A stretch of 64,000 nt of DNA from an uncultured archaeon (GCA_964473825.1 CAYYQL010000006.1:32001-96000); one strand, 5' to 3'. Shown: positions 3,850-57,891, counted from the first letter of the stretch. Made by a program: numbers and translations. The notes: generated from the sequence alone by a model not told the origin.

Positions 3850-6069
3850 TTGAGTACGCTAAGAGAATTGGAACTTGAACGGATATCTCCACATCTGCTA
3901 GAGATACTAAGAAGACAGGGATACGCATCACTCAGTGAGTTCCAGAAGAGTGCATTAAGGGAGGGATTGATGCGTGACGAAAACATCATCATGCAGACGC
4001 ATGACTTCGATGAGGCGTACAGGATAGGCGAGATTGCGCTACTAAACCAGGTGGCATCAAACTTCCGAGCAAGAGGCATCATCCTCTGTCAGAACCCTCA
4101 TCAGGCGGAGAAACGGCTCTCCTCACTGAGCAAGAAGTGCAGCAGGCTTGGAATTAGGGTGACTCCGATAATAAGGAGAAGAGAAGCCACCGGCATCCTA
4201 CCAACACGCGAAAGAGTCATTGTGGCCACAATTCGCTCACTAGGTATTGCCATTCAGTCGCAACCTGGCCTGCTAGATGATGTTAAGTCGATACTAGTGG
4301 AGAGGATAGATAGGATAGGACAACCGAATTATGGTGCAACTCTCGAGGGGATTCTGGTCAACCTCATGGGTGTTTCTGAGAGGGTTCAGTATATTGCCAC
4401 ATGTCCTCCTGTGGCAGACATAGACGATCTAAGTAGATGGTTGAAGGCGGAGGTCGTTGAAGATCCAGAGCCAGAGATTAAGCGAATCTTCAGTGTGAAG
4501 GCCTTCCCTAGTATGGCCGAGTCACTCGCGGATCTTGCAGAATTTGTCCACTACAAAGAGGGACAGATCATGATACTCTGCTCAGACATCGATTCCGCGG
4601 AAGAGCTTGCGTATCAACTCACTGGCATTGATGATGTTCACGAAGACGCAGTACTAGACCTGCGACTCCTGCCTGAGAACCGCGACGAGTTAATTCGGCT
4701 TGCACAACAGATTGGAAGGCATTTCTTCGATTGCGAGTTGACTGACAGACTTCAGGATGTTGTTTCTAGGGGGGTTGCATTCTTTCATGAGGGAGTGCCC
4801 AGAATCCAAAGACGGATGATATCAGAGGCGTGGGAGGAACAGGTTCTCCCCGTCCTTGTAATGCCAACTCGTTTTGCGATTGCGAGCGGCCTCCGCGCCA
4901 CGGTTGTCTTCCTCCTTGGCGCATACATGAGGGACGTGTATTCGGACTTATCTGGTCAAGAGGATCTCACAGTCTTATCAGAACTTCAGCTGTCCGATGT
5001 TCTCGAAAGGGCCGGCAGACCAACATTGGATAAAGAGGGGTTTGGAATAGTAGTAGTGGGCAGCGACGCGGAAAGGAGGCGCGTACTTGAGAGGTATTTC
5101 ATCAAAGATGAGGACCGAAATATATCGCCAAGGCTCGGAGAGGTTGACAGCTCCATGGACGACCCGGAGAACTTTCAGGATCTCCTCCTGAATCAGCTTT
5201 GTGCGGATTCAGACAGCTCCGATAATCCCTTCTCAATTCTTGACCGAACATACTGGGCCGCCTCGAAACGCAAAGTCGGTATCACAGCCGACTTGATGTC
5301 TCCAGTTGAGAACGCCAATGCTGAAACACTGATAGACCTCAGGACCAACAAGTCCACCCGCACCCGAGCGGCAGACATTCCAGATTCAAGTGTCAGAATA
5401 GTATCAGTGACTCCATCCAAGATCGAAGGCCTGGTCCATAGTGGCTCACGGGAGCTCTGGCACTTTGTGGCCCTAAGAGCTGCCGAGGGCGTATCTTGTT
5501 CGTGCGAAGCATGGAAGTATCAGGGTATAAGCAGGCATCGCCTTTGCAAACACCTTGTGAAGTTCTCGAAGTTTGCTTTGGAAGACAATGATACGCGGCC
5601 TTATGCAGCTTCAGTCATCGAACAGGCACTTCGAGGGCTCAGCCTAATCGACGAATTGGAACAGGAAGGTCTGGTTGTGAGAGAAGATAACAGAATCAAG
5701 TGTACGGTGCTCGGAGGTAGCGTCGCAAGACTAGGAGTTCCGGTCGGCGATGCGAGACAGGCCCTGAAGGCGCTCTCCGATAAGAAGGGGGATCTCTACT
5801 CCATCCTACAGAGACTCTTGGTGAGTCGAACAGGTCTATCGGAAGACCTCATCCATGAAGTGCTCTCGTCCCTTCCCGCAGATTCCATTGAGCAGATAGG
5901 AAAGTGTGCAGAGCATATGCCCGGTGTTGTTGAGAACCTGCTCGAAGAGTCTCAGTATGTGAATTCCATTCTCCTTAGCCTCATGGCTAAAGATAAACGG
6001 AATGAACTCGGTCGAAGAAGCCTAGAGTTGCAAGACTCACTTATGACTCTCCTAGAAGACCATTCTTAG
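3850..6069 (+). CDS. Degenerate Hel308/Ski2-like SF2 helicase with inserted SWIM zinc finger
   Basis: LSEFQ Q-motif, RGVAFFHEG and GRP..DKEG retained; Walker A and DExH replaced; CSC-x13-CKH SWIM. Confidence 0.8.
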   Translation: MSTLRELELERISPHLLEILRRQGYASLSEFQKSALREGLMRDENIIMQTHDFDEAYRIGEIALLNQVASNFRARGIILCQNPHQAEKRLSSLSKKCSRLGIRVTPIIRRREATGILPTRERVIVATIRSLGIAIQSQPGLLDDVKSILVERIDRIGQPNYGATLEGILVNLMGVSERVQYIATCPPVADIDDLSRWLKAEVVEDPEPEIKRIFSVKAFPSMAESLADLAEFVHYKEGQIMILCSDIDSAEELAYQLTGIDDVHEDAVLDLRLLPENRDELIRLAQQIGRHFFDCELTDRLQDVVSRGVAFFHEGVPRIQRRMISEAWEEQVLPVLVMPTRFAIASGLRATVVFLLGAYMRDVYSDLSGQEDLTVLSELQLSDVLERAGRPTLDKEGFGIVVVGSDAERRRVLERYFIKDEDRNISPRLGEVDSSMDDPENFQDLLLNQLCADSDSSDNPFSILDRTYWAASKRKVGITADLMSPVENANAETLIDLRTNKSTRTRAADIPDSSVRIVSVTPSKIEGLVHSGSRELWHFVALRAAEGVSCSCEAWKYQGISRHRLCKHLVKFSKFALEDNDTRPYAASVIEQALRGLSLIDELEQEGLVVREDNRIKCTVLGGSVARLGVPVGDARQALKALSDKKGDLYSILQRLLVSRTGLSEDLIHEVLSSLPADSIEQIGKCAEHMPGVVENLLEESQYVNSILLSLMAKDKRNELGRRSLELQDSLMTLLEDHS

Positions 6070-6150
6070 TTGCCGGCACTCAAGCTTTTTATGGTAGCTC
6101 CTTTTGGCCCCGACTAGAAGCAATGTTCATTTTCTCATTGGTGAAAGGTA

Positions 6151-7296
6151 ATGAAACTGTTCGAACATGAGGCAAAAGATATCTTTCGGGAGTTCAAGAT
6201 GCCAACACCTCCCGGAGGTGTAGCAAAGACACCCGGAGAAGCGAAAAAGAGGGCCAAAGAGATTGGCAAACCGGTTGTTGTGAAGGCTCAGGTTCTCTCA
6301 GGTAAGAGAGGGAAGGCAGGCGGAGTGAAATTTGCAGATACTCCTGAAGAAGCTGAGAAACTCGCGGCAGAAATCTTGGAAATGCGAATTAACGACCTTC
6401 CTGTGGAAGCAGTTCTGGTCGAAGAAAAACTGAATGTCGCTCAAGAAATCTATGCAGGAATAACTATCGACCGGAATACACGACAGTATGTCGTGATCGG
6501 CAGTTCTTCGGGGGGAATGTCGATCGAAGAGCTTGCTGAAAGGAGTCCCGAGAAGATAATCAAGAAACCTGTTGACCCATTTCTCGGGTTCCAAGCGTAC
6601 GAGGCCCAAGAGATGGCTGTGGCAATGGGCTTTGAGGGCAAGGATATTCTCAAACTTGCTGGCTTTTTCCTGAAACTCTGGAAGATAGTCGAGAAGTACG
6701 ATGTCGAACTGACAGAGATCAACCCCCTGATACTGACGGATGAAGGAGAGTTTCTTGCAGCAGATGCGAGGCTCAATATTGACAACAATGCACTCTACAG
6801 ACATCAAGACCTGATGAAGAGTCTCGAAAGAAAGCCTCACGAACAGAATAAGAGGGAGCGCTTGGCTACTGAGGAGGGGATGGCATACGTTGAGTTAGAC
6901 GGCAACATAGCCTGTATCTGTAATGGTGCAGGACTCACTATGGCCACGCTCGATGCGGTTGAACTCTATGGAGGCAAGGCGAGTACGTTTCTCGACCTCG
7001 GTGGAGGAGCAGATGCTAAACGGGTGGAACGCGGTGTAGAGATAGCACTGATGTATCCGAAGGTCAAGGCCATACTGGTCAACATCATGGCCGGTATTAC
7101 TCGTTGTGATGAGGTGGCCCAAGGTCTGATATCTGCTAGAGATGATGGAGATATTACAGTCCCCCTAGTTGTCAGAATGGTCGGTACCAATGAAGAGAAG
7201 GGACAGAAGATGTTGGATGAAGCAGGAATACCTTTCCTGGAAACCATGGAAGAGGCGGCTAGAAGGGTCGTTGATATCGTACAGGAGGAGAAGTAG
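6151..7296 (+). CDS. sucC: Succinyl-CoA synthetase beta subunit
   Basis: MKLFEHEAK, VVKAQV, RGKAGGVK, EINPL and NGAGLTMAT motifs. Confidence 0.96.
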   Translation: MKLFEHEAKDIFREFKMPTPPGGVAKTPGEAKKRAKEIGKPVVVKAQVLSGKRGKAGGVKFADTPEEAEKLAAEILEMRINDLPVEAVLVEEKLNVAQEIYAGITIDRNTRQYVVIGSSSGGMSIEELAERSPEKIIKKPVDPFLGFQAYEAQEMAVAMGFEGKDILKLAGFFLKLWKIVEKYDVELTEINPLILTDEGEFLAADARLNIDNNALYRHQDLMKSLERKPHEQNKRERLATEEGMAYVELDGNIACICNGAGLTMATLDAVELYGGKASTFLDLGGGADAKRVERGVEIALMYPKVKAILVNIMAGITRCDEVAQGLISARDDGDITVPLVVRMVGTNEEKGQKMLDEAGIPFLETMEEAARRVVDIVQEEK

Positions 7297-45372: not shown

Positions 45373-45780
45373 ATGAAGAGAGTGTTGTTCCTCTGCACCG
45401 GTAATTCGGCACGCAGTCAGATGGCTGAGGCGCTTCTGCGCGAGCTGGGAAAGGAAGAGTACGAGGCATTCAGTGCCGGAACAGACATTCAGACAGAGGT
45501 CAATCCGTTCGCCATCCAGGTACTCAAAGAGATAGGCCTTAACACCGAGGGACTCCATCCAAAGAAACTGGATCGCTTCAAGGGTGAAACATTCGACTTC
45601 GTCATTACTGTGTGCGATAATGCAAGACAGCAATGCCCCTTCTTTCCAGGAGCAAGAGAGATGCTCCACTGGTCACTTGAGGACCCCGCAGCATTCGAGG
45701 GGAGCCATGAAGAGATTCTCTTGATCTTTAGGGAGACCAGAGATGAGATTGAGAAGAGAATCAAGGGCACATTGCTCTAG
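45373..45780 (+). CDS. arsC: Arsenate reductase (LMW-PTP fold)
   Basis: FLCTGNSARSQMAE, ITVCD....CP and HWSLEDP motifs. Confidence 0.92.
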   Translation: MKRVLFLCTGNSARSQMAEALLRELGKEEYEAFSAGTDIQTEVNPFAIQVLKEIGLNTEGLHPKKLDRFKGETFDFVITVCDNARQQCPFFPGAREMLHWSLEDPAAFEGSHEEILLIFRETRDEIEKRIKGTLL

Positions 45781-47810
45781 TCTTCGACCCAATCAAACTT
45801 CCGCTGCAGGAGTTTGGTGTATATGTTTCTCCAGTCATAGTCGACCTTCTGACACCAGTTGTAGACAATCTTCGGATGGATGTATGATTTGAGAGAAGTG
45901 CCAAGATTCCACGTTCGAGAATCTCGAGCCAGTGCCCAGTCAACCTCTATCTTCTTCTTGGCCAGTTCAGCCTTCTTGACACGTTCCTTCGCCCGTTCAA
46001 CCATTTCCTTCCGTCGCTCGATTCGTTCGTTGCCATCTTCACGTGTGTCGATCAGAGACTGTTTCTTCTTCTCCAGTATCTCCTGACTTCTGCGATAGGT
46101 CTCTGTGTAGTCCTGCACACGCTTCTTTGCCTTTTCCCAACGCTCTCGCGTCCGGTCAATCTTGGCCTGTGCCTCTTCTAGGCGTTCTTGTTTGGTTCTC
46201 TTGCTCTTTCTTCGGCTCTCACGGATTGCGCGCTTCTCGGCACGGGCATTATCCCATGTCTCTTTTGCCTTGTCACGCTTCTCGCGATATTCCGCCATCT
46301 TCTCTTTGCGTTTCTCAACGACATCCTTTTGCTTCTCGATCAGCTCTCTCTTCTTCTTGAGTCGGTCCCGTTCTGTCTTACGCCGTTTCTTGAGGCGCTT
46401 CTTTTTGTCCGCAAGTGCTCTCTCTGCCTTGGCAATACGTTTGTCGGCCTTCTTCAGTCGTTCTTCAAAGCGTTTGTCGCGCCTTGGCCAACTCTTCGGC
46501 GCCTGTTTTGTATGATTCATAATGCGGGCTACTTCCAGATTGGCTCGTTTGGCTGCCGCCTTCTTGATGAAATCCGGGTCCTTCTTTGATACTTTGCTCT
46601 CCTTGAGCTCCTCTCTCATAGTGACAGACGCATGGTACGTCCGGAACATCTTCGCGGTGAGATCTGGATACACCTCACTGAGGAACTGGTTCACATCGTG
46701 ACTCCGGACCTTGGGAAAGATCTGGGCCATCTTCTTTGGGTCGGCCTTCGTCTTCTGGCGCTTTCGGGATTTGAATGAGGCCACCCAATCCTTGGCGTTA
46801 TCGTACAGCTCACGAAAGACATTGTAGACATCATCAGGCGTTTTCAGTTCCTTATGCCAAGGAACACTGTCTTTCCCCAAGAAGTCGAATATTATCAACC
46901 CGTTCTTGAAGGTGAGATGTTCCACACGTAAGGTTGTCGCGCCCACTGTGTCTGCCTCGTCCTTGTCCTTCTCATCTCCGACTCGCAGATTCAGACGATC
47001 AATCAGATAGCATGCAGCTGCGATCTCACGGACCTTTGCATCATCTGAGTGAAGGCCCCTCATGATGTGCTCACGAACGTCTTCAATATGCTTCTCTAGC
47101 CTCAGAGCACTATCGAACTTCTCGGCCTCGCGTTCCTGTTTGATGGGCGTAGCATCATGGAGCCAGATATACTTGTTCTTGCCGGTCAGCTCACTCTTCC
47201 ATTTTGCGATCCAGAGACATTCAGGCTTCCAGACAATCTTCTTCCAGTTCCCCTCCGGACGAGGAGCATCGGGAGAGAGATTGAGTGTGATGTCCTCACA
47301 TGTCGCAGCCTGCTTCCATCGGCCCCGAAGAGGATGCTCGCCTCTTCCCATGAATATCCCTGATGGCTCCGTCATGTAACTGGCTAGTTCCATCGTTTCT
47401 CCGTCAACCTCAGCATATCCGTACTCCTTCTTGAGGCGTTCCCGTTCAGCCTTTCGCTCCTCTCGCGCCCTCTTCTTCTCCTCTTTGGTCATGGCCTCCT
47501 TTGCTGCTCGCTCTTCTTCCACAAACTGTATCACTTGGGAGAAATCAACCTCGTCAAGAGAGAGCGGAGAGTTGAATCCGAGGACTTCACTTAAGTCAGT
47601 CATGAAGTTCTCAATGAACACGGGGTCTTCAACATAGGGCGTGCCCAGCTTCTTTACCCATGCCACAGCCAACTCTTGCTGCCCCCTGGTCAGAACTATC
47701 TTTTCTCCTCGCACTTCAATTTCAAGACCTTCTGGCTCTGGTGCCTCTAAGATTAGTACTCCGTTGTGTTTCAGGCTGTCCATTAGTACATGAAACCTCA
47801 TTCGATTCAT
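45777..47810 (-). CDS. Eukaryote-type DNA topoisomerase IB
   Basis: LKHNG, FMGRGEHPLRG, LRVGDEKD..ADTVG, FLGKDS, AKMFRTY, NH and GTSLKSY; start probably 47810 or 47783 rather than 48014. Confidence 0.93.
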   Translation of the reverse strand: MNRMRFHVLMDSLKHNGVLILEAPEPEGLEIEVRGEKIVLTRGQQELAVAWVKKLGTPYVEDPVFIENFMTDLSEVLGFNSPLSLDEVDFSQVIQFVEEERAAKEAMTKEEKKRAREERKAERERLKKEYGYAEVDGETMELASYMTEPSGIFMGRGEHPLRGRWKQAATCEDITLNLSPDAPRPEGNWKKIVWKPECLWIAKWKSELTGKNKYIWLHDATPIKQEREAEKFDSALRLEKHIEDVREHIMRGLHSDDAKVREIAAACYLIDRLNLRVGDEKDKDEADTVGATTLRVEHLTFKNGLIIFDFLGKDSVPWHKELKTPDDVYNVFRELYDNAKDWVASFKSRKRQKTKADPKKMAQIFPKVRSHDVNQFLSEVYPDLTAKMFRTYHASVTMREELKESKVSKKDPDFIKKAAAKRANLEVARIMNHTKQAPKSWPRRDKRFEERLKKADKRIAKAERALADKKKRLKKRRKTERDRLKKKRELIEKQKDVVEKRKEKMAEYREKRDKAKETWDNARAEKRAIRESRRKSKRTKQERLEEAQAKIDRTRERWEKAKKRVQDYTETYRRSQEILEKKKQSLIDTREDGNERIERRKEMVERAKERVKKAELAKKKIEVDWALARDSRTWNLGTSLKSYIHPKIVYNWCQKVDYDWRNIYTKLLQRKFDWVED

Positions 47811-48315
47811 TTCCAAGCTCAAGAATAGACGGGTGTAGTTCGCTTGTTCTTCTCGGCGAGAAGAGTGTGCCAAAAAAAAGATTGTGTTTAATTCATTGCA
47901 GAACTCGGATTCTTTGGCTAGAAGAAAAGCACAAAAAGGAGAGGAAGCCGAGTCTCGTGCAAGACTCGGCGGGGTTTTATTGGGCCTTTTGAGAAAAGGC
48001 GCTATTAGAACCAAGGCTCTATTAGATTCACCAAGGCTCTATCAGGACGGGGATTTCATCATCTGGACCTGTCAAGTCATTTCACCTGAATATCATTCAG
48101 GGATGAGGGGTAGTGTACTGCACGTTCTGCTATCGAACGATTCGGAGAGAAAGGATAGGTTTATTCCAGAGAGAGCGGGGAGAGGGAGGCAAAGAGAGGG
48201 AGGAGATTATATCCGAACGCCCGGTACAGATTTGCCAAAAACAGCTAAGCAGACATAAGGAAAACCATACGAGAGGAGAACTTCCGTGACATTGGAAGGA
48301 AATCAACCGAACTTC

Positions 48316-51300
48316 TCAGTGAAAGAAACCATCCAGAACCTCGAAGAACTCTTCCATGTTCACTATGTGAAATCTAGTCCAGTTTCCCTCCTCCAATAGC
48401 TGCAGAATGCTATCTACTACCTCATCACCACTGACACCTCGTGGAAGCTCCCATGAAAGAGAGTCAAGAATCTCATCTGCCTCTCCAGCTCGTCTCACCT
48501 CCAAAGTGAGCGTCCTCCTCTGCAAGTCAGCCTCCAGTCGGGCGGGCATTTCTCCATCCCTCAGGCCCCGCTTCTCAAGTGCGCTTCTGATTCGAGTGCG
48601 CTGAGCTTCTGGATCATAGATCGATTCTTCCGGAATCTCTGACGTGATATTCCTCCAGAGATCATCTAAGACATCTGAGAGCTCTCGGACTACTTCCAAT
48701 TCATAGGTGAATGAGCGGTTCTTCCAGTATTCACCCGTCAGACTAGATAGAGCTGTCCACTTGAGCCAGTCATCTCTGATGGTCAAAGATATCTCCCACC
48801 TCTGCTGCTCAGCTCGAAGATAGGTCCCAGTTTTCAGAGATGAAACCTTGAGTCCACTCTTCCGCAGAATCTTTCTAATGAGTGGGCTCTCGCGGAAGAC
48901 CAAGCTCTCTCGCTGAAGGTCTGATGGAAGAATCACATTGACCGGGTGTATCTTGGAATCAAAGACTATGCTCTCGGATCCGAGTCGGAGGATGATCTCT
49001 CTATCAGTGAAAAGGCCGCAGAAGACGTCCAACATTTCCTCATTCTCTCCCTCAAGAGTTGACTGCCAGCATCTGCCATGTTCCTTCCCCTCTCCCGAAG
49101 CCAGTGGACACTCGTTCTCGTTGTGGGATAGTCGAAAGCTGAGCTCCTTACCACAGGGGAGGGCGTGTAGGTCCGCTACTCTGGCCGGTAATCGGATATC
49201 GGCTGTTTCGGGAATGAAGGTTTCACTGACATTCGCCATGAGTGAGAGATCTCCATATTCGATGCCACTAAACCGATCCCAGAAGACCATTTGCCCAGAC
49301 GATAGTCTCACAGGTAGGCCCTTGCGAGTAAGGGTCAATGTATCGATGAGATTTGGCGTGAAGTGATGCTCTATCATCTGCAGGGACTCATCATCTTCGT
49401 TCTTGATGTCCACTCTGCATCCCTCATCTGTCCATGACAGCTCCACTGACACATGTGTCTGCCCTTGAATCCGACTGAGGACACGTTCAATAGCCTTTTC
49501 GAGTCGATGAGATAGACTGGCTGGAACCAGGATATCAGTAGATCTTCGTGAGATTGGTTCTGAGATAGGATCTTGTCTAGTGGCCCGGAGCATCGCGATT
49601 GAGCCCGTTGGTCTACCAGGGATGAAGTCGAACGAGCTCCTTAGAATCCAGTCTGACTCCTCTGTTTCTCTTGTCCAGAACAACCAATTCTCACTGTTTT
49701 GCTGGAGAGCCAGAGAGATGCGAGACCCTGTATCTATGAGTTCGCGGACACTGTCAGTGTGCTCTGAGATATCACTCTCAGCCCATTGCATCCCATCAGG
49801 ACGGGTAGCCAGCCTTTTGTTGAAGAAGCCCACAAGGACTCTAGCAGGATTCCTCGGGTCTTCCAGTGCAACAATGCTGATTGGTTGATCAGGGTCCTCT
49901 GAGTAGACTATCTGACCAAAGCTGGCAATCCTGGGTTTGGGAGATTCAACAGTCTTAGGATAGGAGTCCCTCGCCTTGGACTTGTTCTGCTTGGGGCCAC
50001 GATAGAGTCGGTGAGCATTAATCTGGCCGAGGAAGATATCGGCAAATGCCTTCTGCCTTTTTGTGCGAGGAGGACGATACATGAGCCTATGCAGTAGAGT
50101 GGGTACATCTGTCGGCTCACGGGAAAGAGAACGTCTTGTTATTGTCAGACCTTCCATAGACTCATGAAACTCATTGAAGAAGTCACGGAGAGCATCTGAG
50201 AAACTCACACCGGGTGAAACCTCTGTGTTGGGCCACAGGTCAGCCAACCAAGGAAGCAGGCTCATGGCCAGCGACCTGATCCGGTCTCGAACCCACGCCT
50301 TCGGTACAGCCTGTTCCTGTGGTTCAGGTATCTCTGTCTTGGCCCGATCATATTCTTCGGTTCTGAACTTGGCAGTCCAGTGTCTGAGAACCGGGATGTG
50401 CAAAAGTGAGCTCTCAAACCCGAAGGACGACTGGGCCACCACGACTCTTATGTCATCAAACATGGGACTTCGAGGAGCAGACTGACGGTGCCACGAGTCC
50501 GGGTCGATGACTCGTTCAGGCGCACATGGGAGGTTCCATATGATCTCATCCAGTTCACCCACAAGGGGAGAGGTATCACGCACAGGAATCAGGCAGTTGG
50601 TCGAGTAGATTGGAGTTCTTCTCTCATACTTCACCGGCCTGGAGAACCAGAGGATGGTTGTCTGTTCGTCATCGGATAATCGGTCTACCAGCTCCGCCAG
50701 CAAGCGGTTCATGCGGTCTCGATACAGTGAGGGCGTTGAGCTTTCAATCGCGTCCCACCCTGACACAACTAGCAGACGGGGCTGTTTCACCTTGTCTTCC
50801 AACACCCGCGACAGGTCAATCATCGGGCCGCCATTGTAGAGATATGCCTGAATCTCAGCGAAGAGTGGTTTGAAATCTATGGAATGGAGGGTTTCCTGCA
50901 CTGCATCTGACAGACCATTCTCGCCCGACCGCAGACGCGCCCTCAACCGAACCTCAGCAAGGGAGGTTGTGGAAAACTCGTCAGCCAAGTCAAGCCAGAC
51001 AACACGGAGGTCAGGAGCGCCCTCTCGAAAGTCATGGATCATCTGCAGACCGTGATGATGTGCTGCAATCCAAGCAGCTGAGAGCCCTGCTGAGGTTGGA
51101 GATGCGGCGGCGATATAGAGAATGAAGCGTCGAGCACTGATGCCAGCACCGATCAGTGGGTCATAGGGCGGTTTCCATTCCGGTGGCACCGGCAACTCTC
51201 TGTAGTCTGGAGTGTGTTCTTGGTTGTGGACCACGAGGGCCATGCGCGGTCTCAGCCCATCCCTCGAAACCTCAAAGGCTATTCGTCGTCCAGACAGGTC

Positions 51301-52899
51301 TTCTGTCAGACATGACTCGAGCGCACTCAAGAGAAGCCCCCGTATCATTCGTCTGCTCTCTCTGCTCTCGTCGCTGGGGTCCATGACGAGTGTGGCACGA
51401 ATCACCCTCGGAGGGCTCTCAAGATGAGCAATCGACCCAAAGACCTCAGACAGGGCCTCCGCATAAGCATCCAGCTGGGTAACGGTGTTCGGTTCAGGGG
51501 TGCCATCAACGACCTGTACCCACTCCTTAGGGCTGAGGGGCCGGAGAGAGAGCCTGAACCGTGGGACCACCCGCTGGACCATCCCGTGCCGCTTCCGAGA
51601 TGACGAAGGCCTTCGTTCAGGCTCCATATACCACTTGAACCCACAGCGGGTCTTGACCTCCACCACCATCAGCGGACGCCAGAGGGTACGGAGACCTGTT
51701 GGTGCGGTCTCCCTTCTGAACACGACCAGGTCTGCCCTCCCCTTGCCCAGCGAGGTCCCCAGAGGTAGCTCTGCGACAATCCTGAGACCTCCTCCGGCCC
51801 CATCACGGTCATCGTCGCGGATGGCTCTCCGTACATCCAGAAACCGGTCGAATCTGTCCGTGATGCGCCTGTGGGCCTGGGCCCCCACCCTCTTCGTCCG
51901 TCGAACGGCACTCTGCCACAGGTGTTTCACATCATCACTGGTCAGGCGTGGTGCCTTCTTCTCGTGCTCGTCCGTCAGGACCTCGGACCCGCCTGACAGG
52001 ATTCGGGCAAACTCCCCGGTCAGTACCGAATCCACCCCGGCCGCCTCCGCCTGCGCCAGCTGCTCCTCGAAGAAGTCCATGCTGAAACGGGGACGGGAAT
52101 ACGCCGCATGGGAGGACACGGTCTCAGGCTCACCCACCCGAACACCGTGGTGTGCCGCGATGTCATCACGGATCTCCCGCAGCAGCCTGACCGTCCCATC
52201 CCTAAAGCCCGACGACCCATGCTCATGCTCGGTGTACAGGTGGTCGAGGTAGGTCCGTGCCCGCAGGATGAAGAGGTTGCTGTACCTCCGTGTGTCCCGC
52301 ACCGACACATCGTGGATGTAGGCATCCGTGTTCAGGACCTGGATGTGCTGGCGCAGGGCGTCCATGAAGTCCAGCTCGGTGAGGAAGCGGTGGACAGGGG
52401 GATAGGCGGGGCAGCGTGCGTCGCCGGGATACCCCTGACCGATGTGCTCCCCGTTCTCGTTGAAGAGGGGCTGCGGCTGCCCCATGGGGTAGTAGATCGC
52501 CCCAGACTCCCGCAGAGCCGCGCCCCCAACGTTGAAGCGCTGGTTCAGGGGGCCCACATCCTCGTACCACCGTCGCGCCCGCACGGTCTCGGTGCAGCCA
52601 TAGAGGGCTGCGTTCTCCTCTAGCATGTCCAGACCATTCTTCCTGATGTTGTGCTCGGCCTTCATCACGTGGCTGAAGTCCGGGGCACCCACCGCCCTCG
52701 AGATCTGGTAGGCCTCCGTGTACCGGTGCAGGATGTCACGGGAACTCTCGTACAGGTGGCGCGTGGTCGCGTTCCGAATCGTGCGCTGCAGGTACACAGC
52801 CGTGGACAGACCTGTCCTCATCGCCCGTGCCAGCACCCTGTTCGGATGCCTCGGGTACGGCCTCGCCCGCGGGCCACGGCTCCCTCTCATTCGCGCCAC
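48316..52899 (-). CDS. 1527-aa multidomain protein with a RecB/Cas4-like PD-(D/E)XK nuclease domain
   Basis: GAQAH, AELPL...GRADLV...VEVKT and QLDAY motifs; the rest is unassigned. Confidence 0.7.
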   Translation of the reverse strand: MARMRGSRGPRARPYPRHPNRVLARAMRTGLSTAVYLQRTIRNATTRHLYESSRDILHRYTEAYQISRAVGAPDFSHVMKAEHNIRKNGLDMLEENAALYGCTETVRARRWYEDVGPLNQRFNVGGAALRESGAIYYPMGQPQPLFNENGEHIGQGYPGDARCPAYPPVHRFLTELDFMDALRQHIQVLNTDAYIHDVSVRDTRRYSNLFILRARTYLDHLYTEHEHGSSGFRDGTVRLLREIRDDIAAHHGVRVGEPETVSSHAAYSRPRFSMDFFEEQLAQAEAAGVDSVLTGEFARILSGGSEVLTDEHEKKAPRLTSDDVKHLWQSAVRRTKRVGAQAHRRITDRFDRFLDVRRAIRDDDRDGAGGGLRIVAELPLGTSLGKGRADLVVFRRETAPTGLRTLWRPLMVVEVKTRCGFKWYMEPERRPSSSRKRHGMVQRVVPRFRLSLRPLSPKEWVQVVDGTPEPNTVTQLDAYAEALSEVFGSIAHLESPPRVIRATLVMDPSDESRESRRMIRGLLLSALESCLTEDLSGRRIAFEVSRDGLRPRMALVVHNQEHTPDYRELPVPPEWKPPYDPLIGAGISARRFILYIAAASPTSAGLSAAWIAAHHHGLQMIHDFREGAPDLRVVWLDLADEFSTTSLAEVRLRARLRSGENGLSDAVQETLHSIDFKPLFAEIQAYLYNGGPMIDLSRVLEDKVKQPRLLVVSGWDAIESSTPSLYRDRMNRLLAELVDRLSDDEQTTILWFSRPVKYERRTPIYSTNCLIPVRDTSPLVGELDEIIWNLPCAPERVIDPDSWHRQSAPRSPMFDDIRVVVAQSSFGFESSLLHIPVLRHWTAKFRTEEYDRAKTEIPEPQEQAVPKAWVRDRIRSLAMSLLPWLADLWPNTEVSPGVSFSDALRDFFNEFHESMEGLTITRRSLSREPTDVPTLLHRLMYRPPRTKRQKAFADIFLGQINAHRLYRGPKQNKSKARDSYPKTVESPKPRIASFGQIVYSEDPDQPISIVALEDPRNPARVLVGFFNKRLATRPDGMQWAESDISEHTDSVRELIDTGSRISLALQQNSENWLFWTRETEESDWILRSSFDFIPGRPTGSIAMLRATRQDPISEPISRRSTDILVPASLSHRLEKAIERVLSRIQGQTHVSVELSWTDEGCRVDIKNEDDESLQMIEHHFTPNLIDTLTLTRKGLPVRLSSGQMVFWDRFSGIEYGDLSLMANVSETFIPETADIRLPARVADLHALPCGKELSFRLSHNENECPLASGEGKEHGRCWQSTLEGENEEMLDVFCGLFTDREIILRLGSESIVFDSKIHPVNVILPSDLQRESLVFRESPLIRKILRKSGLKVSSLKTGTYLRAEQQRWEISLTIRDDWLKWTALSSLTGEYWKNRSFTYELEVVRELSDVLDDLWRNITSEIPEESIYDPEAQRTRIRSALEKRGLRDGEMPARLEADLQRRTLTLEVRRAGEADEILDSLSWELPRGVSGDEVVDSILQLLEEGNWTRFHIVNMEEFFEVLDGFFH

Positions 52900-53099
52900 T
52901 CTCTCTTCGTGCAGAAAACTATCGTATATGCTGTGACCATATCAAATGTTGGCTTAATATTTTTCGATTGATATTTTCAGGCTTAGAGAACGAATAGACT
53001 AATTCAACTAGTTGTTTATTCAAATTGCTTCATAACTTTATATGCTTTCATACTTACTCATTGTAGGAGTTCAAAACGGCCCTGCAAGCACAAGGAGGC

Positions 53100-53122
53100 G
53101 AGTGAACTCCACTTAGTGGACT
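53100..53122. repeat. Left arm of 23-bp imperfect inverted repeat bracketing tnpB-like copy 1
   Basis: GAGTGAACTCCACTTAGTGGACT is the reverse complement of 54911-54933 at 19/23 positions. Confidence 0.7.
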
Positions 53123-53143
53123 ATCAGAACTTTATATGCGAAG

Positions 53144-54829
53144 ATGATGGCGATGGTCAAGTCCCAGGAACCAGTAATCACGGTCAAGATTCCCATCAAC
53201 TGGGAGGAGATGACCGCGAGGGCACAGCAGCGACTGCGCCAGATGGTGGGACGTGACACCAGAGTCATCCGAGCGTTCTTCGGGATCATCGAAGAGAACG
53301 AGGAACAGCTCTTGAGGGGGAGAAACAGGGACCGGATCGATGAGAACAAGCTGCATGCTATGACCATGACTGCCCTGAAGGTGAGCAAGGGACAAGAAGA
53401 ACGTCCTGAGGTAGAGCACGACCTGAAGGAGCAGTTCCCGAGAATATCAGCAAACGAGCTGAGTGAGTGCCGCAAGGTGGCTGTTGCGAATTACGAGAGT
53501 TACCTGGCCTTGAAGAGGAAGCGATGGCGGAAGGCGTCACGACCCAGTGAGGTGAATCGGAGCCAGCGGATACCGAGAAGAATCTTCATTCCGTATCGGG
53601 CTGAGCTGGTTCATCATAAGAGCACTGTGGCAACGTGGTGGCTGGAGCTGCGTGACTCCCTGGACTCGGTCCCTGAACGACGGCGGGTACATGATAGACT
53701 GACGGTGCCGCTGAAGACCTCCCCCTTTCACCTTGAGCAGCTGGACAGGGGAGATAAGAAGTCTGTGCAGGTGTTCACGGACAGACGGGGGAAGTGGTGG
53801 GCAGCGGTTGCTGTGCGATTGCCCGGGGTCGAGGCTGAGTCAGAATTGCCACCTGCAGTGTTGGGAATCGATCTGGGAATCAACCGTGCGGTCTGTACGA
53901 CGTTGGTGACGCCCTCAAAGGTCTCGGAGACCCGGTATTTTGTCCAAGAACATAAGGTCAGACTCATGAAGAAGTATGATGACCGATTTGCCGACCTGCA
54001 GCGGGAACTTCAATTCTGTAAGGCTGACACGGAGCGGCACGATAACGTGGCTGCTAAACTCCGGAGCCTTCGCTCCAAGCGAGAACAGGTCTCCAAGGAG
54101 TACGACAGGCTAACCGTTAGCAGACTCATCTCGTATATCGAGGAGCTGTCACAGAAGTGGATGGTCTACGTGGCAATAGGCCGCGTCAAGGGCATCCGCA
54201 ACACTGCTCGAAAGGGGAACTACAAGGGAAAGAAATTCAGAGGGATGGTGCATCGCTGGAGCTTCGGGCGGGTGACGCGCACGCTAAAACACGGGCTCGA
54301 GCAGCGAGGCTGGAGAACCGAGGGAAGGAAGAGCCGGTTTCATGTTGTCCCTGAGAACTGGACCTCCATCACCTGCTGGAAGTGCGGCCATCGAGGTGTT
54401 CGTCCCAAGCAGTCTCTGTTCATCTGCCATACTTGTGGGTTCAGAACGAACGCTGACAGAAACGGTTCCCTGAATATCGCGCGTCGATTGATCACGCTCA
54501 TTCCGTCACTTACGAATGAGAACGGACTAGGGCGGTGGGCCACTCCTCAGCGGGAGCTCGGCTCAGCCCCGAAGGCTGTGAGGAAGACCCGTTCTTCTAA
54601 GCAGAAGTCCGAACTTGCTCGCAATGGCCCGGCATCAGGCCAGAGCAAGTCCGCGGTGGTTCGCCCCACTCAGATGAGTATCCTTGACTTTGGTGACGAA
54701 GTTGCGGGTGGCGATGATGATAGTGCCGTGGGAAGAGCTGTGGAAACACTCTCTGCTTCCAGCAATGATGCGGCTGAGTTAAAGCAGGAGAAGGAAGCTC
54801 GGGTTACAGGAGGGACCGTGTCCCAATGA
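53144..54829 (+). CDS. tnpB: TnpB/Cas12f-like RuvC nuclease, copy 1 (rearranged catalytic Glu)
   Basis: VLGIDLG (D243), VAIG346, VPE404NWTS, CWKC..CHTC zinc finger, NAD438RNGSLNI. Confidence 0.88.
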   Translation: MMAMVKSQEPVITVKIPINWEEMTARAQQRLRQMVGRDTRVIRAFFGIIEENEEQLLRGRNRDRIDENKLHAMTMTALKVSKGQEERPEVEHDLKEQFPRISANELSECRKVAVANYESYLALKRKRWRKASRPSEVNRSQRIPRRIFIPYRAELVHHKSTVATWWLELRDSLDSVPERRRVHDRLTVPLKTSPFHLEQLDRGDKKSVQVFTDRRGKWWAAVAVRLPGVEAESELPPAVLGIDLGINRAVCTTLVTPSKVSETRYFVQEHKVRLMKKYDDRFADLQRELQFCKADTERHDNVAAKLRSLRSKREQVSKEYDRLTVSRLISYIEELSQKWMVYVAIGRVKGIRNTARKGNYKGKKFRGMVHRWSFGRVTRTLKHGLEQRGWRTEGRKSRFHVVPENWTSITCWKCGHRGVRPKQSLFICHTCGFRTNADRNGSLNIARRLITLIPSLTNENGLGRWATPQRELGSAPKAVRKTRSSKQKSELARNGPASGQSKSAVVRPTQMSILDFGDEVAGGDDDSAVGRAVETLSASSNDAAELKQEKEARVTGGTVSQ

Positions 54830-54955
54830 CGGTGGCCGAAGCTCTTGCTTGCTCTGGGGTGGCTCCCAGAAGTAGCGGTGACGCTGGGCAAGAGAAGAGC
54901 GGAACACAGAAGTCCAACCAGCGGAGTTCACTCAACCCCAGCCATGGGAGTACAC
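54720..54955 (+). ncRNA. omegaRNA/reRNA-like structured RNA of copy 1 (boundaries approximate)
   Basis: Three-way junction 54842-54894 that covaries with 56729-56779; conserved GGAACAC..AAGTC..CACTCA end. Confidence 0.6.
54911..54933. repeat. Right arm of the inverted repeat / element right end
   Basis: AGTCCAACCAGCGGAGTTCACTC; a degenerate homolog lies at 56797-56818. Confidence 0.7.
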
Positions 54956-55049
54956 TTTGTCTTCTGAAGAGCAAAGCCATGCTTTTTCTCTTGCTGCAGT
55001 TGATCGATTCCGCAACTGGACTGTTAGTAAATAGGCTGAGGCGACGACG

Positions 55050-57161
55050 ATGGCGGCTGCTACGAACCCTAGAATCGCGGTAAAGATACCGATTGCATGG
55101 GAGAGCATGTCGTCTTCTTCTCAGCAACACTTGGAACAGATAGTGGGTAGGGACTCCCGAGCAATCAAGAGGCTCCTGGGCATCATTGAACACAATGAGG
55201 ATGATCTACTCTGTGGTAAGAGAAGGAACAAGGTGAGCCTGGGGCAACTCAACAGAATCACCATGACTGCGACGAGGGGAAAGGCCAACCGGACCAAGGT
55301 CCCGCATGACCTGAAGGTTGACTTCCCGCGGGCCTGTGCCAGCGACCTCGCTGAGTGCGTCAAGACAGCTGTCAGTCTGTACAACAGCTACCTTGCCCTC
55401 AGGCAGAAGAGGGGGTGGAGAGCGTCCCGACCCTGTAAGTCGAACTCCTCAGGACGTATCCCTCGATGGATGTTTCATCCCAAGTCCTTCCGATTGGTTC
55501 AGCATGAGAACACGACTGCGCGGTGGTGGATGTCCCTGAGGGACTCGATGGACTCGAACCTTGAGGACAGGTTGCGCCATGACAGGCTCATGATTCCCCT
55601 GAAGATGTCCCCCTTCCATGAGAACCAGCTCCAGCGCGGCGAGGTCAAGGCTGCACAGGTCTTCACTGACCGGCTGGGAAAGTGGTGGGTCACGATATCC
55701 GTTCGTCTGGCTGAGACTCCAGAGGTCAGCGACGAGAACCCACCTGCTGTGCTAGGAATAGACCTGGGGATTGAGAAGGCTGTCTGTACCACTCTTGTCA
55801 CCCCTGAGAAGGTGCGCGAAACGCGCTACTTCACACAGCAGAAGAAGGTCCGTCTTCTGAAGCAGTATGATGACAGAGTCGCAAGTCTGCAGAGCGAGAT
55901 GGACCTGAAAAAGGCTCGCGGCCAACGCTATGATGGTGTTGCAGAGAGACTGCGCTCTCTCAGAACCAAGAGAGAGTCCGTGTCCAAGGAACACGATCGC
56001 GTCCTGCTCCGGGAACTGATCGACTACATCCTGGAGCTGAGTGAGAGGTATACACTCTTTGTCGCGATTGGCAGGCTCAAGAACATCCGAAATAGTGCCA
56101 AACGCGGTGACTGGAAGGGCCGAAGGTTCAGGGGCATGGTCCATTCATGGGCCTTCGCTCGGATAACCGAGGGACTTCGACGACAGCTCGGTCAGCTGGG
56201 TTGGCCTGTTCTGGGTAAGAAGTCGCGGGTCCACGCAGTCCCTGAGGCATGGACATCCATCATCTGTTGGAAGTGCGGGCAGAGAGGAACCAGACCCAGA
56301 CAGAACCTCTTTGTCTGCTCCTGTGGAAACAAGTGCAATGCCGACAAGAACGGAGCCATCAACATCGCCGGACGCCTCATTACGCTCACAGAGTCACTCA
56401 ATTCTGTGAGAGGACTAGGGAAGTGGGCTAGTGCAGCCTCTGCACGACGCACGCAACTGAAAGCCCGGAGGAAGACATCTTCCAAGGGGAGGTCCTCACT
56501 CTCAGGGCGCGATGCCTCATCTCATCGCGGAGAGTCCGCGGCTGTTCACTACGCTCAACCGAGCCTCCTCGACTTCGGTGACGAGGCTGAGGTGAGTGAT
56601 GACGGTCCAGCCGTGGGAAGAAACGTGGAAAGACTCTCTACCGCTGGAACAGATGAACCAGCAGAAAAGGTAGGAGAAGGAAGCCAAGACAGGAAGAGAA
56701 GTGCCACTTCTATGATGCCTGACAAAGACTCCATCCCTCCCCGTCGCCAGACAGGGAATGGTGGCAACACCGGGTGGAGAAAGGGTGGAACACGTAAGTC
56801 AACTAGAGAAGCCCACTCACTCATCAAGGGAGCCGCAACACCACTTCGAATGAATAGGAGAAGAGAAGCATGGATGGTGCGGCCACCGGGAATCGAACCC
56901 GGGCCCCATGCTTGGAAGGCATGGATCCTGACCACTAGACTATGGCCGCTTCACAGAGAGCTGACAGCCCATAGTCGATTTAAGGCTATTGCAGTGGCGC
57001 CGCGAGTTGACAGTCCGGGGAGTGGAAGGTGGATCCTTGCCTTGGAGGTCCGACACTCTTTCAGACCATGCATCTGGCTGAAGGTCATACGAAGACCAGT
57101 TCATCATGTCGAGCAGAACAACAGATATCTGGAGGAGAAGCAGACAAGAGGAGCGCGCTGA
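55050..57161 (+). CDS. tnpB: TnpB/Cas12f-like RuvC nuclease, copy 2 (tail frameshifted; homologous stop at 56713-56715)
   Basis: VLGIDLG, VAIGRLK, VPEAWTS, CWKC..CSC and NADKNGAINI; colinear with copy 1. Confidence 0.88.
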   Translation: MAAATNPRIAVKIPIAWESMSSSSQQHLEQIVGRDSRAIKRLLGIIEHNEDDLLCGKRRNKVSLGQLNRITMTATRGKANRTKVPHDLKVDFPRACASDLAECVKTAVSLYNSYLALRQKRGWRASRPCKSNSSGRIPRWMFHPKSFRLVQHENTTARWWMSLRDSMDSNLEDRLRHDRLMIPLKMSPFHENQLQRGEVKAAQVFTDRLGKWWVTISVRLAETPEVSDENPPAVLGIDLGIEKAVCTTLVTPEKVRETRYFTQQKKVRLLKQYDDRVASLQSEMDLKKARGQRYDGVAERLRSLRTKRESVSKEHDRVLLRELIDYILELSERYTLFVAIGRLKNIRNSAKRGDWKGRRFRGMVHSWAFARITEGLRRQLGQLGWPVLGKKSRVHAVPEAWTSIICWKCGQRGTRPRQNLFVCSCGNKCNADKNGAINIAGRLITLTESLNSVRGLGKWASAASARRTQLKARRKTSSKGRSSLSGRDASSHRGESAAVHYAQPSLLDFGDEAEVSDDGPAVGRNVERLSTAGTDEPAEKVGEGSQDRKRSATSMMPDKDSIPPRRQTGNGGNTGWRKGGTRKSTREAHSLIKGAATPLRMNRRREAWMVRPPGIEPGPHAWKAWILTTRLWPLHRELTAHSRFKAIAVAPRVDSPGSGRWILALEVRHSFRPCIWLKVIRRPVHHVEQNNRYLEEKQTRGAR
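56605..56840 (+). ncRNA. omegaRNA/reRNA-like structured RNA of copy 2 (boundaries approximate)
   Basis: CTCCATCC/GGGTGGAG stem enclosing two hairpins, including GGTG-GCAA-CACC. Confidence 0.6.
56875..56949 (-). tRNA. tRNA-Gly(TCC), intronless
   Basis: GCGGCCA/TGGCCGC acceptor stem, CATGC-CTTCCAA-GCATG, TTCGATT and CCA. Confidence 0.95.
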
Positions 57162-57365
57162 GTACAGCCGCAGGTACCGAACCACGAGATGATGGAGATG
57201 GGACGAGTATTCGAGTTTGACGAGGTGACAGATGCCGACTTGATTGTTGATGAATCTGGTCTTTCCCAAGTGGCAGAAAAGCGCCACTAGGAAGATTGAA
57301 TATCTGGAACGGGATAGAGGGAGAGTAAGAACCGGTTTGGTAGAGGAGACAGCGGAGAGCTGAAC

Positions 57366-57891
57366 ATGGTCAACATAGATGTCCCTTATGTGCCTCAGAA
57401 GGGGAGCACAGACTGCGTAATTGCGTGTACCATGATGTTCCTGCGGTGGGGAAAAGACACATATGATGACTTTGTGGAGTTCAAATAGGGAGAGCTCGAA
57501 ACAATCATAGGAGTTGGAAAGGACGGGTCACGCCTATGTGACGTGCAGAAGCTGAACCGTGAAAAGCGGATAACAAAGCACCGCTGGAAGCCTCGGTTCT
57601 ACTGCGGCCCGCCGACTTCCATACAATTCCTATGGGATGAACTACAGGATGGACGACCATTGATAGCATTCCTACTGGTCGAGAAGCCAGACGGAGTGGA
57701 TGAAGCATGCAGTCGTTCTCACAGGTCGCTCCAAAGACAGAACGCAGGTCACATACTTGGACCCACTGAATGAGAGTCCTGTGACAGAGACCACTGGCGG
57801 CTTCCTAGAGAAGTGGGAGAGCCTCTACAGATACTGTGTACATCTTGATATCACCGAGGAATATGTATTGACTGACTTCATGGAGGAGTAA
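57366..57891 (+). pseudogene. C39-like (papain-fold) peptidase pseudogene
   Basis: VPYVPQ....DC.IAC, ELQDGRPLI, HAVVLTG and YLDP; in-frame TAG at 57486 and a +1 frameshift near 57697. Confidence 0.75.

Follow-up and report, generated by a model that had tools for sequence, protein, structure and literature searches.

The window analysed here is the whole stretch of 64,000 nucleotides (nt) GCA_964473825.1 CAYYQL010000006.1:32001-96000 from an uncultured archaeon, which corresponds to C6:32001-96000 in a genome of 3.27 Mb that is 96% complete. The nearest relatives of its proteins carry the NCBI label Candidatus Thorarchaeota. It carries a gene for a giant protein of 1527 amino acids (aa) lying head-to-head with tnpB1, a gene for a TnpB-like RNA-guided nuclease, and the giant gene and tnpB form a real, strongly conserved two-gene unit of Thorarchaeota. 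Modelling of the giant protein predicts that it begins with a hidden Cas1-type integrase domain, and the sequence features of the locus place it among the catalogued Asgard aCas1-TnpB elements. The best explanation, to which we assign a probability of roughly 0.55, is a Cas1-mobilised element that integrates at transfer RNA (tRNA) genes, with TnpB and its omega-RNA serving homing or retention.

The giant family was searched for in 400 genomes of the phylum. With a query derived from the window, 51 of the 85 genomes in the source archaeon's own family proved to contain members, as did 3 of 12 genomes in one other family, and none was found elsewhere among the 400. In 29 of the first 30 loci a tnpB lay directly upstream of the giant gene, the exception having 285 base pairs (bp) of contig there. 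With larger flanks, 42 of 43 Thorarchaeia loci contained exactly one divergent tnpB across a gap of ~70-370 bp. The exception, L082, gave no tnpB match; a ~19-nt motif ~110 nt upstream of its giant gene resembles, by eye, the 3' end of a tnpB of the 720-aa type described below. A preliminary description of this DNA had raised the concern that homologs of the giant gene might usually lack a neighbouring tnpB. The opposite was found, and the functional pairing of the two genes that it proposed is strongly supported.

The genome of the window contains two further giant paralogs (contigs C2 and C26), which are 25-29% identical to the window protein and 36% identical to each other, each preceded in divergent orientation by a gene for a TNB-domain protein of 718 or 720 aa. 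In other assemblies, three orthologs lie in three different gene contexts, each head-to-head with a tnpB encoding 560 or 561 aa. An exhaustive HMMER search over 1.84 billion representatives returned 198 clusters at E values up to 0.001; the 150 matches listed of these 198 were full-length or fragments with E values of 4e-29 or better, and no outward link was found among them. Judged from these searches the family is narrow. Comparison with the orthologs in G384, a genome of the same genus, gave ratios of nonsynonymous to synonymous divergence (dN/dS) of 0.21 for the giant gene and 0.09 for tnpB1, and both genes are under purifying selection. The synonymous divergence (dS) between the giant gene at 48316-52899 and its counterpart at L044:4494-9077, both from genomes of the same genus, was 0.28, with values of 0.62 for tnpB1 and 0.84 for the flanking topoisomerase IB gene, both well above it. 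The low value suggests that the giant gene was exchanged recently or that its silent sites are constrained. The genome of the window also contains a decayed giant-tnpB pair (C17:5791-7206, L009), where a C-terminal tnpB fragment with a stop codon (5973-6410, minus strand) neighbours a fragment (6646-7206, plus strand) that matches giant residues 1165-1345.

The features of the locus, in window coordinates, are as follows, ORF standing for open reading frame and GC for guanine plus cytosine content.

48292-48299, no strand: remnant of a tRNA-Gly 3' half, TTGGAAGG, at the start of the alignment with L044
48316-52899, minus strand: giant gene, from its ORF and translation, 1527 aa
52900-53143, no strand: divergent intergenic region, 244 bp, 36.5% GC, with two TATA-like boxes around a hairpin-forming unit
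53100-53122, plus strand: left inverted repeat, beginning GAGTGAACTCC, 83% complementary to the 3' end of the RNA scaffold at 54911-54933
53144-54829, plus strand: tnpB1, ORF of 561 aa with TnpB profile matches
54754-54933, plus strand: omega-RNA-like scaffold overlapping the tnpB1 3' end, final letters GTTCACTC
54934-56874, plus strand: tnpB2 unit, with its own scaffold at ~56640-56822 and repeat families D1 and D5, absent from G384
55050-57161, plus strand: tnpB2 ORF, 703 aa
56875-56949, minus strand: tRNA-Gly(TCC), convergent with tnpB, its 3' end abutting the element end

This layout agrees with the preliminary description, which had reported a 1527-aa gene head-to-head with tandem tnpB-like genes across a 244-bp AT-rich gap, the block ending at the 3' end of tRNA-Gly(TCC) and being free of arrays. 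The ORFs coincide, the gap has 36.5% GC against 56% in the genes, the tRNA gene was located at the expected end, and no repeat array was detected within 47900-57400. The observation as a whole was confirmed, apart from the stated absence of cas1. No cas2 was seen in the locus, though no search aimed at cas2 was made. The GC of the module is 56%, compared with ~50% in the surroundings. Directly downstream of the giant gene is a eukaryotic-type DNA topoisomerase IB (45777-48014, minus strand; domains Topoisom_I_N, Topoisom_I and Topo_C_assoc), which was rejected as a part of the module because its synteny with the giant gene is confined to the closest genomes.

Searches of Pfam, NCBIfam, PADLOC and PDB sequences gave no match to the giant protein. 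Its residues 1-860 were modelled with AlphaFold2 from 38 homologs, giving a predicted local distance difference test score (pLDDT) of 86 and a predicted template modelling score of 0.86. The model was compared with known structures using VIA-align, the top 50 matches being considered, and residue conservation was scored across 38 members of the family. The domains assigned are:

Residues ~10-240: Cas1-like catalytic alpha-domain, from the model and invariant motifs, followed by a helical linker
Residues ~320-560: RecB-like PD-(D/E)xK nuclease, from invariant motifs and strands in the model
Residues ~586-839: RecA/KaiC-like domain with degenerate Walker A motif, from structure matches
Last ~690 residues: small alpha/beta domains without a clear fold match

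Residues ~10-240 matched ten Cas1 or casposase structures with Z scores of 9.4-13.2, values that helical domains may reach by chance (up to ~13), so that Z alone is not decisive. The best match was 8flj_A (Z 13.2, root-mean-square deviation 3.5, 178 residues aligned), followed by 4n06_B (Z 12.7), 4w8k (Z 12.2), 7kft (Z 11.7) and the casposase 6opm (Z 10.9); the others were 2yzs, 6qxf, 5vvk, 7cr6 and 8d3p. The matches always fell on the C-terminal catalytic domain of Cas1, beginning at Cas1 residue ~80-114, and no other protein family matched this region among the top 50. Within the giant family N119, H170, D177, D180 and R183 are invariant and E104 and N123 are at least 90% conserved, giving the consensus ExxAAxYG (E104), PLNxxxNxGxxxL (N119, N123) and H170...LD177xxD180xxR183. 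The corresponding motifs of the window protein, MLE104ENAALYG, GPLN119QRFN123VGGAALR130 and H170RFLTELD177FMD180ALR183, align by eye with the canonical Cas1 of the same genome (P0156), whose motifs are NVEGRAASEYWG, DPFNMMLNYGYGIL and H...LVLDLIEEFR; the stretch of its first motif that was paired by eye with the giant protein is EGRAASEYW. The Cas1 assignment is made because the fold match coincides with residues that are conserved across the family and correspond to the Cas1 motifs. The earlier statement that no cas1 is visible thus holds for sequence searches only.

The nuclease motifs noted previously (G..H, E..GRAD..EVK and QL..Y) proved invariant or nearly so in the 38 members at G339, H343, E377, G387, D390, K416, Q475 and Y479, with E377, D390, K416, Q475 and Y479 strictly invariant and strands at 372-430 in the model. 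Weak profile matches were obtained to VRR_NUC, PDDEXK_2 and HSDR_N, and the nearest language-model clusters were PD-(D/E)xK families, all below 0.9. The nuclease would not be Cas4 proper, as no cysteine occurs among the invariant or 90%-conserved columns of the 38 members and the Cas4 iron-sulfur cluster has four. The suspected degenerate P-loop-like domain folds in the model as a RecA/KaiC-like core at residues 586-839, which matched 2ekd_A (Z 12.7), XRCC2 (Z 12.4), KaiC (Z 11.9) and Rad51 (Z 11.8) and likewise DnaB cores, with a Foldseek E value of 2e-5 for the region. The Walker A position reads AAASPTSAGLS in the window protein, without a lysine; the family consensus is SxTSSGxS and the lysine position is unconserved. 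The C-terminal part, described earlier as about 700 unassigned residues, gave a good model from residue ~990 onward (pLDDT 78), with a number of small alpha/beta domains. Searched as one long model, the C-terminal ~690 residues gave no convincing PDB structure match, the best having a Z of 5.9.

Both downstream genes are TnpB-like, as had been proposed: the products of tnpB1 and tnpB2 matched Pfam Cas12f1-like_TNB at 1e-11 and 1e-10 and NCBIfam guided_TnpB at 3e-24 and 4e-23, respectively, and are 55% identical to each other. Two very divergent TnpB types, of ~560 and ~720 aa, occur beside the giant genes. In the 560-aa type D243 (RuvC-I), D438 (RuvC-III) and the CxxC...CxxC zinc finger (C411/C414/C428/C431) are invariant, while the canonical RuvC-II glutamate is replaced by an invariant G346 and a relocated glutamate, E404 (PENWTS), is invariant in this type only. 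The 720-aa type keeps the canonical RuvC-II motif FE(D/N)L. A rearranged RuvC-II site is active in Fanzor and TvTnpB (PMC10530073), and by this analogy the rearranged triad of TnpB1 probably forms a live nuclease. A nuclease-dead TnpB acting as a TldR-like repressor was ruled out, G346 being compensated by the invariant E404 and the 720-aa type retaining FE(D/N)L. No TnpA, whether Y1 or serine recombinase, was found in the neighbourhoods of the giants in this genome and of the three orthologs. On the tree of giant proteins at least five changes of TnpB type fall on well-supported branches, which indicates that tnpB cassettes have been exchanged. As far as the tree goes, this swapping argues against a tight, co-adapted protein complex of giant and TnpB.

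The window and G384 are colinear, at 88% nucleotide identity, from genes for an MFS protein and topoisomerase IB through the giant gene and tnpB1 to position 54934. In G384 the tRNA-Gly gene lies 33 nt past the point that matches 54934; in the window the tnpB2 unit is located between. Since G384 lacks this unit and has tRNA-Gly directly after tnpB1, tnpB2 is read as a later, solo insertion at the same tRNA junction. A module with two TnpB proteins, as first suggested, is therefore upheld for tnpB1, which belongs to the core unit, and not for tnpB2, which lies outside it and is missing from a genome of the same genus. The tnpB2 ORF has no stop codon at the place homologous to the tnpB1 stop and runs on for ~160 codons across its own RNA scaffold and then tRNA-Gly in antisense to 57161; this C-terminal extension is probably not a functional protein.

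A tRNA gene convergent with tnpB was located 97-139 nt past the tnpB stop in 7 of 37 relatives, five being tRNA-Gly, one tRNA-Lys and one tRNA-His. Three relatives, L044, L045 and L075, carry the 3'-terminal 42-45 nt of tRNA-Gly, back to the anticodon loop, as a direct copy 18-34 nt past the stop codon of the giant gene; the complete tRNA is found on the other side, past tnpB. These tRNA-half direct repeats enclose the giant gene and tnpB only, and no other recombinase gene was found between them in the relatives. Repeats flanking the locus are clear in L044, L045, L075 and L083; the giants of L044 and L075 are 88% and 28% identical to the window protein, and in both loci leftover element ends occur at tRNA-Gly. 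The arrangement of the repeats reads as a signature of integration into a tRNA gene, and the repeat could be either a long target duplication or an attachment (att) site carried by the element. For an empty-site comparison, contig C53 of the same genome ends inside the repeat. Of the earlier alternatives, a mobile element is the one favoured by repeats that enclose just these two genes. A second partial copy of the tRNA-Gly 3' end was observed ~3.15 kb beyond the giant stop at L045:1325-1353 and L047:1224-1252, and in the genome record of L045 (L012) a gene for a 981-aa SLFN/AlbA_2 protein lies directly beyond the giant gene. The tRNA-Gly gene may be a tandem integration hotspot, the place of the SLFN gene between tRNA pieces being deduced from sizes.

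The structured RNA of tnpB1 consists of the last ~75 nt of the gene and ~105 nt downstream. RNAalifold on 20 sequences found compensatory changes in 28 of 35 scaffold pairs, and no Rfam family matched the scaffold. The conserved scaffold is closed by GTTCACTCA (54926-54934), here and in more than 20 relatives, and between a conserved AGAAGT and GTTCACTCA lies a variable stretch of 12-17 nt (20+ loci). By eye, in a few loci, this stretch partly mirrors the intergenic inverted repeat and seems paired with bases downstream; RNAalifold predicted no pair at this stretch in the 20 sequences. The 23-nt inverted repeat brackets tnpB1 at 53100-53122 and 54911-54933, and in most loci with a TnpB of the 560-aa type its core GAGTGAAC precedes tnpB by 37-62 nt. 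The variable stretch and the intergenic inverted repeat showed modest locus-specific covariation (self score 9.6 versus cross score 8.4). Upstream of tnpB1 a 16-nt TATA-like box (TCA[T/G]AACTTTATATGC) occurs twice, at 53030-53045 and 53124-53139, 94 nt apart. Most of the 29 loci with a 560-aa TnpB have an exactly duplicated box of 10-15 nt at a spacing of 94-98 nt, compared with a mean of 2-7 nt in shuffled sequences, and each locus has its own box sequence. The two boxes could be separate promoters, a guide and its target, or the trace of an old target duplication whose copies have stayed in step.

The genome of the window also contains ~14 orphan omega-RNA-like modules (nine of ~150-180 nt, three copies of tnpB 3' fragments and two partial copies) and two intact tnpB genes of the window's type only. 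The nine modules of ~150-180 nt, given as contig:positions in this genome, are:

C82:4581-4742, C2:181060-181222, C2:111705-111850, C2:114013-114148, C2:245481-245610
C2:15-124, C6:970-1129, C3:118030-118177, C18:22580-22698

From their sequences these dispersed elements resemble guide-RNA genes without a tnpB. Every element carries a TATA-like box of its own, and its 3' half is homologous to the end of the omega-RNA in the TnpB subtype nearest to L083, of which the assembly contains no full copy, and the modules are conserved up to ...GTAAGAAACGGATTAT, after which their flanks differ. The three tnpB 3' fragments appear as 108-aa ORFs (C19:4924-5358, in the L084 region; C12:26433-26873; C102:1534-1986) that are ~40% identical to the C-terminal tail of TnpB1 and carry a complete RNA scaffold. 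Their variable stretch is the reverse complement of the 12 nt following GTCACTCA, and the C19 fragment lies ~1.2 kb downstream of the canonical cas1 of this genome (C19:2908-3747).

In the explanation favoured here, the giant would be the mobility enzyme, a Cas1-family integrase domain fused to a RecB-like nuclease and a RecA-like domain, and TnpB with its 3' omega-RNA would be the RNA-guided nuclease module of a two-gene integrative element. The giant is the candidate integrase because the Cas1 fusion is the only candidate enzyme between the boundary repeats. The Cas1 domain would integrate the element into the 3' half of a tRNA gene and leave an intact tRNA, this half being duplicated or brought along by the element, and repeated hits at one tRNA would give rise to tandem arrays, here with the giant-tnpB1 unit placed first and tnpB2 added later. 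The omega-RNA guide would read into the flanking tRNA 3' end, and TnpB would maintain the element at its site by cleaving sites that are unoccupied or from which it was excised, as happens in IS200/IS605 homing.

Several observations weigh against this explanation. The Cas1 domain was undetected by sequence methods (Pfam including PF01867, NCBIfam and PDB, with a single sequence or the 38-sequence profile), and hhalign of the giant against the Cas1 of the same genome gave a non-significant probability of 0.5%, the sole aligned stretch being the middle motif. The N-terminal beta-sandwich of Cas1 is absent from the giant, the model of which opens with helices. The window itself keeps 8 nt (TTGGAAGG, 48292-48299) of the distal tRNA repeat, and the inverted repeat flanks tnpB alone and not the unit of giant and tnpB. 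The genome contains no near-identical copies, its paralogs being 25-36% identical, and the locus keeps its synteny with G384, at 88% nucleotide identity; any recent mobility is thus hypothetical. The tRNA-half repeats also resemble the att sites of tyrosine integrases, and an integrase acting in trans is possible. The preliminary interpretation stands for the pairing of giant and tnpB and for the mobile-element alternative; it does not stand for novelty, the missed Cas1 domain, and tnpB2, which is outside the core. Its proposal that guided TnpB directs or protects the large nuclease stays hypothetical.

Other explanations draw on the same observations. In one that we regard as unlikely, the omega-RNA guide would pick the tRNA 3' end and TnpB would recruit or license the giant Cas1 integrase, as in CRISPR-associated transposons (CAST); its fuller form, no less doubtful, is a single giant-TnpB machine that inserts DNA with a ~45-bp duplication. 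The guide would then match the insertion site, which fits the constant distance at which the element end adjoins the tRNA 3' end in 8 loci, the recurrent insertions at the same tRNA-Gly junction (tnpB2 and the leftover ends in L044 and L075) and the retention of TnpB beside every giant gene. However, the catalytic triad of TnpB is complete, whereas the Cas12k of CAST is inactive, and at least five swaps between the 560- and 720-aa types are hard to square with a co-adapted interface. The probability falls a little further for an adaptive or defence system without an array, in which the fusion of Cas1 and a Cas4-like nuclease would make or renew guides and TnpB would be the effector against invaders, the guides being located in the variable stretch that precedes GTTCACTCA or present as orphan copies of the omega-RNA. 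CRISPR adaptation pairs Cas1 with a RecB/Cas4-like nuclease, the variable stretch adjoins a repeat-like motif, and ~14 orphan modules with differing flanks accompany two intact tnpB of the type. Yet the identifiable flanks are host tRNA sequence and not foreign DNA, 47900-57400 contains no array and PADLOC no match for the giant, and the variable stretch may, judged by eye in a few loci, mirror the intergenic repeat in part and pair with bases downstream.

A domesticated, immobile host module, vertically inherited and with a cellular role such as RNA-guided DNA processing or repair, or regulation at its own promoter, is about as improbable as the defence system. It would account for the purifying selection on both genes, the synteny within the genus, paralogs that are old and divergent and not fresh copies, and the conservation of a duplicated promoter-like box with an inverted repeat in the intergenic region. 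It accounts less well for orthologs in different contexts in different genera, tRNA-half repeats that mark insertions, a patchy distribution (51 of 85 family genomes) and a GC of 56% against ~50% around. Far less probable than any of these is the absence of a functional link, with tnpB elements repeatedly inserting at a hotspot beside the giant gene. That tnpB has its own inverted repeats, that a solo tnpB2 was inserted nearby and that at least five switches of TnpB type are seen on the tree of giants would agree with it, whereas a single tnpB occupies the same divergent position, at a gap of ~70-370 bp, in 42 of 43 loci, giant and tnpB share one set of boundary repeats, and the window's TnpB type almost never occurs away from the giant gene in its own genome.

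The window copy and its relatives offer a handle on such elements, with two intact genes under selection, defined ends at tRNA genes and a covarying guide-RNA scaffold, and loci with and without a second tnpB provide a natural comparison. If integration were RNA-guided, the locus would represent a stage, still living, intermediate between casposons, TnpB transposons and type V CRISPR adaptation, and would match CAST with an enzyme based on Cas1. A Cas1 fusion acting as a site-specific or RNA-guided integrase would be of interest to genome engineers. No experimental study of the giant-TnpB family was found in the literature.

The source paper for aCas1, as a catalogued locus type, is said to be Makarova et al. 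2020, CRISPR J 3:156. TnpBs associated with aCas1 were described by Altae-Tran et al. 2023 (PMC10691335) in two Asgard groups (Cas1H-Asgard-1 and Cas1H-Asgard-2), with aCas1 suggested as a transposase, flanking repeats noted, and a variable stretch followed by GTTCACTCA downstream of tnpB. The present locus shares with them a Thorarchaeota-type Asgard host, a diverged Cas1 homolog adjoining tnpB, the variable stretch with GTTCACTCA, and repeats that flank the locus in relatives, and their two TnpB groups fit the ~560- and ~720-aa types. It differs in nothing essential, the window copy having an extra solo tnpB. The proposal of a candidate new module is superseded by this catalogued locus, which has the same GTTCACTCA motif behind tnpB. 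Compared with the text of PMC10691335, the analysis adds the full domain map of the giant, the tRNA-half nature of the repeats, the swapping of TnpB types, the duplicated promoter-like box and the orphan omega-RNA modules.

Casposons resemble the locus in having a Cas1-family enzyme as the presumed integrase and in inserting at the 3' end of tRNA genes. The fold of the Cas1 catalytic domain also matches (Z 10.9 to 6opm). They accumulate in tandem at one site. In contrast to casposons, the locus has no family-B DNA polymerase and two genes only between its boundary repeats, the giant lacks the Cas1 N-terminal beta-domain and fuses Cas1 to nuclease, RecA-like and other domains, the boundary repeats are 42-45 nt of tRNA compared with target duplications of 14-15 bp, and the inverted repeat brackets tnpB only, with TnpB and omega-RNA on board. 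The TnpB part resembles the OMEGA modules of IS200/IS605 and IS607 in its RuvC nuclease with zinc finger, its structured RNA overlapping the 3' end and its guide at the element edge, and it shares with the TnpB and Fanzor proteins of rearranged RuvC-II (PMC10530073) a glycine for the canonical glutamate and a conserved alternative glutamate 58 residues later. It differs from OMEGA modules in having no TnpA, a Cas1-fusion partner, a short inverted repeat around tnpB and proteins of 561-720 aa. Type V CRISPR-Cas adaptation modules differ in that the locus here has no array, a nuclease without the Cas4 cysteines and a single chain of 1527 aa; they are alike in placing Cas1 and a RecB-family nuclease beside a Cas12/TnpB-type effector, and Cas1 beside TnpB without an array is the combination expected of an ancestor-like stage of type V CRISPR-Cas.

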